A DNA stretch of 32,000 bases from Bacillota bacterium. GTDB lineage: Bacteria > Bacillota > Clostridia > Acetivibrionales > JANLFN01. Location: assembly GCA_023421675.1 (NCBI GenBank), contig JAEZTC010000009.1:17719-49718 (forward strand), written 5' to 3'. The translations under genes and the position numbers were made by a program. The notes under the pieces were generated by a model, which worked only from the letters and a program-made list of their open reading frames with translations, had not been told where the DNA came from and did no database searches. This document shows positions 16,756-18,279 of the stretch, in pieces; positions within the stretch are counted from its first letter, which is position 1, and every line of letters starts with the position of its first letter.

Positions 16756-17067
16756 TTAGCAACATCCGCTGCTATTACTTTCATTTCCACCAGAACAATC
16801 GCAATTGGGCTCCGTACCTTTGAGCCAGCCCATAATAATTGCAGTTACACAGCCAACCCCAGGTTTTACTTCAATTGCACTAAACGGACAATTTTTTGAA
16901 CATGCTCCGCACTCCATGCAGCTATCTTTATCTATGATTTCAGCTTTTCCACCTTTATAGCCTAATACCTTATGCGGACATACTTCTATACATTTTGAAC
17001 ATCCAGTACATCTATCTGCATTAAGTTTTAATGATGTTACATTCTTTAAATATCTATGTCTCATCAT
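16756..17067 (-). CDS. hgcB: Mercury methylation ferredoxin HgcB
   Basis: Two [4Fe-4S] motifs CTGCSKCIEVCP and CMECGACSKNCP (HgcB hallmark CMECGAC), PGVGCVTAII with Cys at residue 73, and a C-terminal vicinal Cys pair ...SSGCC. Confidence 0.93.
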   Translation of the reverse strand: MMRHRYLKNVTSLKLNADRCTGCSKCIEVCPHKVLGYKGGKAEIIDKDSCMECGACSKNCPFSAIEVKPGVGCVTAIIMGWLKGTEPNCDCSGGNESNSSGCC

Positions 17068-17073
17068 TCCCTC

Positions 17074-18279
17074 CTAAATAATTATAATATTATTGGCCAG
17101 GATCAGGATTATCCCTGCACTTATAGAAATTATAACCGCAGGAACTGCAATTTTCATTTCCTTCAAAACTCCCGATAATGAAGTATATGTAGATGAACCT
17201 GTAAATTTCATTGCATAATAGGCAGATATTGCAGGTAAGGTAAACAAGTATCCCAGAGCCTTCATTATACCGTAATCCGGTTCATTCGGGTAACCATTAA
17301 GAATATTTAAAAAAACAGCCCAAAGCATGCCAAGTAGCCATCCTTTCCAGGCGAATGCCTTACCGGGAATCCATGGGAGTAAAACCGGGGTTAGTACGCA
17401 ACCCGTAATCAGTGCACCTATGAAAGCATAAAAATCAACAAGTCCAAAAGGCCCTAATCCTATAACATTTAATAAAAAGAGTACCCCAAAAACCATTAAA
17501 GAAGTTTTGTAAGTACTTACAATTTCTATCGGCGTTAAAACTAACCTGTTATATAAATTAAATCTAACGGTCCTCATTTCTTCGTCTGCTTTAAGCCCTG
17601 ATGAAATAAATCCTTTAATATCTCTCGCTCTTACTGGTCCATAGATTACTTTGAAACCAGTGTGTTTTGAAACCTCATGCGCGCTTACACCAGGTGCACC
17701 CAACTGCGGCAGTATAACAACCCTGTGTGAAACAATCTTCAACAATTTTGTTTTAGTAATACGGGCTATCAGCTCATTAGTACCAAATGTACCTTTACCG
17801 GCTGCACACCAGACATTAACACCCTTTGTATCAAGAACCAGAATCCAGGCACTTAGTCCTGAAAGTTCCTTTCTCAGCATATCAAAGGTTAATTTATAAT
17901 TTGCGGTTACAAGTACCGGTGAATTATCGTCAGGATTCCCAACAGCATAAATACCCGGATTAATCTTATACTTCATCCTGTTAATTCCCCAGCGGACCTT
18001 CCATGCACCAAGTATATCCTCAAACATTAATCTTGTTGAAACCTGCGGTACTATACCAGCTGGTGTCTGAATTTCGCCTGTTATCCAACTGTCTTTTTTA
18101 TCATATTGTGTAATGGGCTTAGAAGTGCATTTATTATCAACACCGCAACAACAAGATTTTTCATTTTTACCGGAATTTTTAGAACCATTTTTATCAGGTT
18201 CATTTATTTTTTGTTTTACTTTAAGCACAATTGCTTTCTTTACATTATCATCTGAATTATTAATGGTTTTATTATTCAC
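17074..18279 (-). CDS. hgcA: Mercury methylation corrinoid protein HgcA
   Basis: Cap-helix signature NVWCAAGKGTFGT (NVWCAAGK encoded at 17794-17817; Cys158), corrinoid-binding domain followed by a multi-TM C-terminal domain, and hgcB immediately downstream. GTG start with GGAGGTG ribosome-binding site. Confidence 0.95.
   Translation of the reverse strand: MNNKTINNSDDNVKKAIVLKVKQKINEPDKNGSKNSGKNEKSCCCGVDNKCTSKPITQYDKKDSWITGEIQTPAGIVPQVSTRLMFEDILGAWKVRWGINRMKYKINPGIYAVGNPDDNSPVLVTANYKLTFDMLRKELSGLSAWILVLDTKGVNVWCAAGKGTFGTNELIARITKTKLLKIVSHRVVILPQLGAPGVSAHEVSKHTGFKVIYGPVRARDIKGFISSGLKADEEMRTVRFNLYNRLVLTPIEIVSTYKTSLMVFGVLFLLNVIGLGPFGLVDFYAFIGALITGCVLTPVLLPWIPGKAFAWKGWLLGMLWAVFLNILNGYPNEPDYGIMKALGYLFTLPAISAYYAMKFTGSSTYTSLSGVLKEMKIAVPAVIISISAGIILILANNIIII

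Follow-up and report, generated by a model that had tools for sequence, protein, structure and literature searches.

An intact hgcA-hgcB pair at the head of an arsenic-resistance operon in an uncultured Clostridia lineage, with arsR-arsD-arsA in its place in other strains

The hgcAB locus and its surroundings

The window, by which we mean the whole 32,000-nt stretch of DNA analysed here, carries two adjacent genes on the minus strand. According to the list of open reading frames, hgcA (17074..18279) starts with GTG and encodes 401 aa, the corrinoid protein of the mercury-methylation pair, and hgcB (16756..17067) encodes a 103-aa ferredoxin with two [4Fe-4S] clusters. At the junction, the letters GAGGGA separate the hgcA stop codon TAG (17076..17074) from the hgcB ATG, a gap of 6 bp. 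A sequence-only reading of this DNA had named an hgcA-hgcB pair in canonical order with a 6-bp gap, and the open reading frame list and the raw sequence bear out its coordinates exactly; it left the strand unstated, and both genes lie on the minus strand. A Shine-Dalgarno sequence, GGAGG (18288..18292, minus strand), can be read 8 nt 5' of the hgcA GTG and supports the long N-terminal form of HgcA. The start of hgcB reads ATGATG. Its second ATG (17064) is better spaced from AGGAGG, and a start there would give an HgcB of 102 aa, the length of the public gene call, and turn Cys73 into Cys72, a trivial difference.

Ahead of hgcAB the window runs through a gdpP-like gene, rplI, dnaB, tilS, hpt, ftsH, metK, an HD-domain gene, a hypothetical gene and recD2; past hgcAB it continues with the ars genes, SDR and DUF3795 genes, a sigma factor and a polysaccharide/glycosyltransferase cluster. 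The 32,000 nt hold only housekeeping, ars and polysaccharide genes and no energy-metabolism genes, so the proposed description of the carrier as fermentative is neither supported nor contradicted. The FtsH encoded in the window shares 89% identity with the FtsH of a 'Bacillota bacterium' MAG, ~83% with its counterparts in Clostridiales/Clostridia MAGs and 79% with the protein from Anaerobacterium chartisolvens (in the NCBI taxonomy Clostridia; Oscillospiraceae), values that make an uncultured member of the Clostridia a reasonable assignment. The exact HgcA is a public protein (P0241; NCBI, ENA, Logan) found on 7 contigs, the longest of 301 kb; a variant that differs by 2 aa (P0001) lies on a 261-kb scaffold, and contig L092 (ENA ERZ27268835 k141_50016) matches 17.4 kb of the window at 100% identity. 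The sequence is found in metagenome assemblies and MAGs only, and 'isolate', the word that had been used for its source, does not apply.

The pair heads an arsenic-resistance operon, arsR-acr3-arsC, on the same strand. The first gene, arsR (16237..16572, minus strand), encodes a 111-aa ArsR/SmtB metalloregulator with an ELCVCD site (NF033788, 85.6 bits; Pfam HTH_5), the CxC of which is invariant in its homolog alignment. It is followed by acr3 (15144..16220, minus strand), an arsenite efflux transporter gene (TIGR00832, 446 bits against a cutoff of 282.8), and by an arsC-like gene (14708..15142, minus strand) for an arsenate reductase of the low-molecular-weight phosphatase type (Pfam LMWPc), for which TIGR02689 gives 121 bits against a cutoff of 157.6, below equivalog cutoffs, and which has 134 aa in the public gene call. 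Neither this ars-operon context nor the Cys-rich N-terminal extension of HgcA described below figured in the sequence-only reading.

Between hgcB and arsR, a pattern scan finds a terminator-like hairpin with a U-tract (16674..16711, minus strand), the RNA fold of which has -12.8 kcal/mol (z = -3.0 versus shuffles). Just 5' of arsR, the 24-bp palindrome GTATAACCGTTTAAACGCATATAC (16597..16620, no strand assigned) is a putative ArsR operator. No operator is shared by the upstream regions of hgcA and arsR, and the two regions carry different palindromes. In the 203-bp hgcA leader (18280-18482), a sigma-70 scan of the minus strand gave no convincing promoter, with total matches at about the shuffle expectation, and Rfam at gathering thresholds gave no riboswitch or other RNA, the only match in the window being the metK SAM riboswitch. 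With a strong ribosome-binding site for each gene and the terminator-like hairpin past hgcB, hgcAB appears to be a bicistronic unit of its own; we infer transcription units and regulation from features of this kind.

Family membership and integrity of HgcA and HgcB

HgcA begins with an extension (residues 1-~65) that is predicted to be disordered and that contains Cys43-Cys44-Cys45 within KSCCCG (18145..18153, minus strand; codons TGT TGT TGC). In 51 of 77 related GTDB HgcA loci, the extension has two or more Cys in a row. An HgcA N-terminal extension with a CC/CU motif has already been described by Haft & Gwadz (bioRxiv 10.1101/2022.07.06.499078), and the CCC motif is therefore no novelty. 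Judged by its residues, KSCCCG is the all-Cys version of the published extension: the selenoprotein (CU) form has an in-frame UGA after the Cys, and here the sequence is Cys-Cys-Cys with no in-frame stop.

The corrinoid-binding domain (residues ~66-236; 17572..18084, minus strand) is identified from Pfam, a PDB match and the alpha/beta fold of an AlphaFold2 model. [quoted passage not shown] The cap-helix motif NVWCAAGK, which had been singled out as diagnostic, is placed by a script motif scan at residues 155-162 (17794..17817, minus strand), with its Cys at 158; it is invariant in the homolog alignment and matches the pattern used for this helix, N[VI]WC[AS][AGS]GK with a strictly conserved Cys. 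The C-terminal membrane domain that had also been claimed is predicted to have five transmembrane helices (17080..17556, minus strand), at residues 242-275, 280-299, 309-327, 338-363 and 368-400. This count rests on the AlphaFold2 model together with hydropathy, the Kyte-Doolittle 19-residue mean having a maximum of 1.15 in residues 1-240 and several segments above 1.4 past residue 250. The model, made with 31 homologs and of moderate confidence (mean pLDDT 62.5, cap helix <50), has a disordered stretch at 1-56, the alpha/beta domain at 66-236 and five long helices at 242-400.

A search with curated models, which had been suggested as a check on the assignment, places both proteins above cutoff. 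HgcA scores 494.8 bits against the NCBIfam equivalog NF040863 HgcA_corrinoid (cutoff 275, E 1e-148), its residues 77-398 covering profile positions 1-324 of 325, and HgcB scores 128.2 bits against NF040864 HgcB_ferredoxin (cutoff 99, E 7.9e-38) over profile positions 1-93 of 93; with such E-values the matches are not due to chance. Homologs of HgcA number in the thousands, and the nearest named one is an annotated HgcA at 74% identity. When the HgcA model was compared with the PDB by Foldseek, the top match was 9a0b_A (E 3.8e-20, 42% identity over 326/329 columns), the integrative model that Cooper et al. made of ND132 HgcAB; CFeSP entries ranked after it and aligned over ~130-150 columns only.

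These results bear on an alternative to HgcA, in which the 401-aa protein would be a corrinoid protein of the carbonyl branch, a CFeSP large subunit of the AcsC/CdhE type. Such an identity would fit the lone CdhD domain and the labels of some close homologs ('acetyl-CoA synthase subunit gamma' or 'corrinoid/iron-sulfur protein'), and the CFeSP large subunit (AcsC/CdhE; PDB 2h9a, 2ycl, 4djd) does share with HgcA a homologous Rossmann-like corrinoid-binding domain and a cap helix. However, the CFeSP/ACDS gamma model NF003195 gives only 80.7 bits against a cutoff of 306, over residues 105-227 and profile positions 323-445, and the 401-aa protein is without the N-terminal [4Fe-4S] and TIM-barrel domains of CFeSP, whereas it has the five predicted C-terminal transmembrane helices and the cap-helix Cys ligand that CFeSP is without. 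Among the open reading frames of the window, no CODH/ACS genes lie near hgcAB. The sub-cutoff score, the missing Fe-S/TIM-barrel region and the presence of the helices and the Cys lead us to reject the CFeSP identity, the probability of which we consider negligible. A CdhD/AcsC-like protein with no membrane domain was also what the sequence-only reading had named as evidence against itself, and the protein found here is of a different kind on both counts.

In HgcB, the script places Cys at positions 20, 23, 26, 30, 50, 53, 56, 60, 73, 89, 91, 102 and 103. Both CxxCxxCxxxCP motifs are present (C20/23/26/30-P31 and C50/53/56/60-P61), Pfam finds ferredoxin motifs, and Cooper et al. (PMC7305189) give Cys 20/23/26/60 and 50/53/56/30 as the ligands of the two HgcB clusters. 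The second cluster-binding motif, CMECGAC, occupies residues 50-56 (16900..16920, minus strand; motif scan). The C-terminal extension (16759..16851, minus strand; motif scan) contains Cys73 (16849-16851), which lies ~12 residues past the second cluster motif, as well as Cys89, Cys91 and the pair Cys102-Cys103 (16759-16764). CMECGAC, Cys73 and the terminal CC thus all lie where they had been read from the letters. Cys73 and the C-terminal Cys pair are functionally required in HgcB (Cooper et al., PMC7305189), and C73, C89, C102 and C103 fall in columns that are >=90% conserved among 78 homologs. In the Hg-MATE consensus protocol (PMC10087281), the high-stringency criteria are NVWCAAGK plus C(M/I)ECGA on one contig, and both motifs occur in the HgcA and HgcB of the window.

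Conservation extends beyond the motifs. HgcA agrees with its homologs at 99/99 columns that are >=90% conserved (103-sequence alignment, 102 others), and HgcB at 31/33 such columns (78 homologs), with two conservative changes, T12S and A74V; the earlier statement that every diagnostic residue is intact holds. It is very improbable that hgcAB encodes a fusion of the HgcAB-like kind or is a copy that has decayed and lost its function. A partial match to NF043039 HgcAB_like would point to a fusion, but it amounts to 200.7 bits against a cutoff of 285, and the window has two separate open reading frames parted by the TAG stop and a ribosome-binding site, on which grounds we reject fusion. Decay is at odds with reading frames free of frameshifts and internal stops, with the retention of all conserved columns and with the occurrence of the protein, identical or 2 aa different, on ~10 independent contigs; with frames intact and conserved columns kept, a pseudogene is rejected as well. 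Both genes are intact, belong to the HgcA and HgcB families and have their architecture. From the sequence and the structural model, we consider it highly likely that the intact canonical pair of this uncultured Clostridia lineage is a true and probably functional hgcAB.

An accessory hgcA-hgcB-arsR cassette

GTDB species representatives contain at least 597 HgcA loci. Of the best 80, 78 have hgcB immediately 3' of hgcA, ~18 have an arsR-like gene immediately 5' of hgcA, and ~17 have acr3 or arsC adjoining hgcAB. Examples of gene order are arsR-hgcA-hgcB-acr3-arsC (L040) and arsR-acr3-arsC-hgcA-hgcB (L010). The lineage of the window is without an arsR-like gene directly 5' of hgcA, and its order, hgcA-hgcB-arsR-acr3-arsC, is unusual.

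Among the closest known sets is HgcAB of the Bacillota type, from Peptococcaceae, Desulfitobacterium, Desulfosporosinus, Ruminiclostridium, Pseudobacteroides, Clostridium kluyveri and many MAGs. HgcA of the window is 59-74% identical to these proteins, is like them ~400 aa long and has the same KSCCCG-type N-terminal extension, but it is without the first N-terminal 'CC' (MENKxCC) that most members have. As in the window, acr3 and arsC are often adjacent to hgcAB of this type. Most of these loci read arsR-hgcA-hgcB-(acr3-arsC) or arsR-acr3-arsC-hgcA-hgcB, whereas in the window arsR follows hgcB. Co-location of hgcAB with ars genes has already been published (McDaniel et al. 2020, PMC7438021; Gionfriddo et al., bioRxiv 10.1101/2022.10.17.512643). 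The window resembles those cases in having hgcAB beside arsR, acr3 and arsC, and differs from them in that the arrangement is resolved as a swap within one species against arsR-arsD-arsA with defined breakpoints.

For this comparison, contigs encoding an identical FtsH were retrieved and aligned to the window. Five of them (L089, L091, L093, L094 and L096) are 98.5-99.6% identical to it between 32000 and 18484, where the stop of recD2 lies, and 98.5-98.9% identical again from 16209, which lies 11 nt inside acr3. In between they carry arsR (109 aa)-arsD-arsA in place of hgcA-hgcB-arsR (111 aa); in L089 this allele occupies 17931-20665. Identity between the two ArsR proteins is only 41%. The strain-variable segment hgcA-hgcB-arsR thus spans 16210..18483 (minus strand), with blastn breakpoints at 18483/18484 and 16209/16210, and the acr3-arsC genes downstream are common to both types of conspecific contig. 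Among 24 contigs, 5 are of the hgcAB type, 16 of the arsRDA type and 2 of a third type, and 1 is truncated; as samples and repositories are mixed in them, these counts are indicative only. MAGs GCA_023460775.1 and GCA_023436985.1 are examples of the arsRDA type. The third type (L095) has M16 peptidases and a radical-SAM gene at the locus. A remoter relative (L085; FtsH 97%, nucleotide sequence 86-89% identical) has arsR-arsD-arsA-acr3 and is without hgcAB.

The hgcA-hgcB-arsR segment is therefore an accessory cassette, at the place of which other strains of the species have arsR-arsD-arsA. Signs of a recent foreign origin were absent, with no GC anomaly (37.2% in the cassette and 36.8% in the window), no tRNA and no integrase or transposase among the annotated open reading frames of the window; no mobile-element genes flank the cassette. 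That the breakpoints are clean and lie in conserved genes suggests that one allele replaced the other through homologous recombination. In the hgcAB-ars literature we found no description of a swap between hgcAB and arsRDA within a species with defined breakpoints.

Mechanism and selected role

The experimentally characterised reference is HgcA/HgcB of Pseudodesulfovibrio mercurii ND132 (DND132_1056/1057), the genes of which have the same order as in the window. The two HgcA proteins are alike in architecture, with a corrinoid-binding domain, an NVWCAAGK cap helix with its Cys and five transmembrane helices, and the two HgcB proteins have nine Cys at identical residue numbers (20, 23, 26, 30, 50, 53, 56, 60 and 73) plus a C-terminal Cys pair. 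HgcA of the window differs by ~65 extra N-terminal residues with the CCC motif, and for ND132 HgcA an extended form with a CU motif has been proposed (Haft & Gwadz, bioRxiv 10.1101/2022.07.06.499078). HgcB of the window has an additional CDC at residues 89-91. In ND132, arsR2 lies upstream of hgcA and is co-transcribed with it, and no other ars gene is adjacent, whereas the window is without arsR directly 5' of hgcA. The roles of Cys93, Cys73 and Cys94/95 in ND132 HgcAB come from mutagenesis (PMC7305189), and Cys158 of the window is by analogy the counterpart of Cys93, the Co-thiolate ligand.

By homology to ND132 HgcAB, we infer catalysis and methyl donor as follows. HgcA would be a membrane-anchored corrinoid protein, the cobalamin of which is ligated from below by the cap-helix thiolate of Cys158. 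Co(I) would be methylated to CH3-Co(III) with SAM as donor, in line with the SAM donor and Co-thiolate ligation reported by Zheng et al. 2024 (PMC11588087), and the methyl group would then pass to Hg(II). HgcB with its two [4Fe-4S] clusters would re-reduce the cobalt, and Cys73 and the flexible C-terminal pair C102/C103 would handle Hg(II) and CH3Hg+; KSCCCG of the HgcA N-terminus probably contacts metal too. All hgcAB+ cultures tested methylate Hg (PMC4646819). Expression of HgcAB is very low even in model strains, hgcA abundance is a poor predictor of methylation, and the physiological substrate of HgcAB is debated.

A true HgcAB could have been selected for a role in arsenic or metalloid handling within the ars locus, with Hg methylation as a side reaction, a reading that we regard as rather doubtful. 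It is suggested by hgcAB-arsR holding the exact place of arsR-arsD-arsA in conspecific strains ahead of the same acr3-arsC, and by the acr3/arsC and arsR-like neighbours of related loci counted above. Control of hgcAB in ND132 is exerted by an As-responsive, ArsR-like regulator, and a delta-hgcAB mutant is more sensitive to As(V). Yet a terminator-like hairpin parts hgcB from arsR, no operator-like palindrome is common to the upstream regions of hgcA and arsR, the co-location may be mere co-transfer of metal-related genes, and HgcAB has no known biochemical activity on arsenic. A more specific proposal, which we hold to be unlikely, is that hgcA-hgcB-arsR is a horizontally exchanged 'head cassette' of the ars operon, interchangeable with arsR-arsD-arsA in one species, in which HgcAB is selected for metalloid handling. 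If true, HgcAB would replace the function of ArsD/ArsA or act on arsenic species, and the spread of hgcAB would be driven by arsenic exposure rather than mercury.

It is also quite unlikely that the native substrate of HgcAB is a halomethane and that the locus serves reductive dehalogenation of CCl4 or trihalomethanes. A 2026 preprint (10.64898/2026.04.26.720869) describes both CCl4 dechlorination and Hg methylation by heterologous HgcAB, but this is a single report on ND132 and G. sulfurreducens PCA that is not yet peer-reviewed, and nothing in the window points to halomethane metabolism. A halomethane substrate would in any case not exclude Hg methylation.

As a probable mercury-methylation pair, the locus adds one more uncultured Clostridia lineage to many putative mercury methylators and is of routine value for Hg risk inventories. 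The importance that the sequence-only reading gave to a Clostridia carrier is overstated, given that ample documentation exists for hgcAB carriers that are fermentative or belong to the Clostridia (PMC4646819; bioRxiv 10.1101/2020.04.01.018762; PMC7438021). Published work had already shown that Firmicutes/Clostridia, fermenters among them, carry hgcAB, and had described the motifs, the N-terminal extension and the proximity to ars genes. The swap between hgcAB and arsRDA within a species is a modest but useful observation for the arsenic-hgcAB hypothesis. Since hgcAB is present in only some strains of one species, where it trades places with arsRDA at the ars operon, methylation potential cannot here be predicted from taxonomy at the species or 16S level. 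The hgcAB+ and hgcAB- strains, which are near-isogenic and come from related samples, offer a clean natural comparison for the proposed link between arsenic and hgcAB.

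Allelic variation around the ars and hgc genes

A third allele is found downstream of recD2 in the conspecific contig L095 (18211-21815; ENA ERZ27269054 k141_29566), in addition to the hgcAB and arsRDA types of other strains. It contains two M16 peptidases and a PqqD/radical-SAM/SPASM gene, which make up a RiPP-like cluster, and has no ars or hgc genes; homology between L095 and the window stops at window position 18514, within the 3' end of recD2. The arsC gene and the adjoining SDR gene (window 13946-15142) are present in the window's species and absent from the same position in L085, a more distant relative with 86-89% nucleotide identity, and the ars locus is therefore variable at both ends.

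The metK gene lies 4.7 kb upstream of hgcA in the window, and SAM has been reported as the methyl donor of HgcAB (PMC11588087). Given that strains without hgcAB keep metK at the identical position, its proximity to hgcA looks coincidental. Because a SAM-I riboswitch (RF00162, 87.3 bits; 24264-24366, minus strand) is located 5' of metK, the real start is that of the 397-aa form and not of the 414-aa ORF.

Palindromes upstream of arsR and hgcA

A near-perfect 24-bp palindrome, GTATAACCGTTTAAACGCATATAC (16597-16620), separates a TATAAT-like box from the ribosome-binding site of arsR; its likely role is that of an ArsR operator. This palindrome was not found in the hgcA leader, which has a separate one centred on ACAATTGT at about 18341-18370.

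Protein ends of HgcA and HgcB

HgcA of the window has a Cys-rich N-terminal extension of approximately 65 residues that contains KSCCCG (18145-18153, minus strand) and matches the CC/CU extension described by Haft & Gwadz. In alignment A1 of HgcA proteins it lacks the first 'CC' (MENKxCC), which most clade members have. At least two consecutive Cys occur in the extension at 51 of 77 GTDB HgcA loci, from many phyla. The extensions of other HgcA genes contain candidate selenocysteine (CU) sites, such as KSC[TGA]PPP: L049 and L075, the two loci in which the identity of the stop codon was read, have TGA immediately 3' of a Cys codon upstream of the HgcA match, and L004, L052 and L061 have an in-frame stop, written '*', within the aligned N-terminal region, immediately after Cys in L052 and L061.

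The 5' end of hgcB reads ATGATG (window 17064-17067). An AGGAGG that overlaps the stop codon of hgcA has a spacing of 2 nt to the first ATG and 5 nt to the second. In the public gene call, hgcB starts at the second ATG (102 aa); with the first, Cys numbering is identical to that of HgcB from Pseudodesulfovibrio mercurii ND132.

ORFs without a family match

For four ORFs of 326, 326, 443 and 116 aa (6306-9621 and 21138-21488), neither Pfam nor NCBIfam gave a match. Three of the four fall within a polysaccharide cluster of glycosyltransferase/UDP-sugar genes (840-12367); these three may encode polymerase/flippase-type or other novel membrane proteins.
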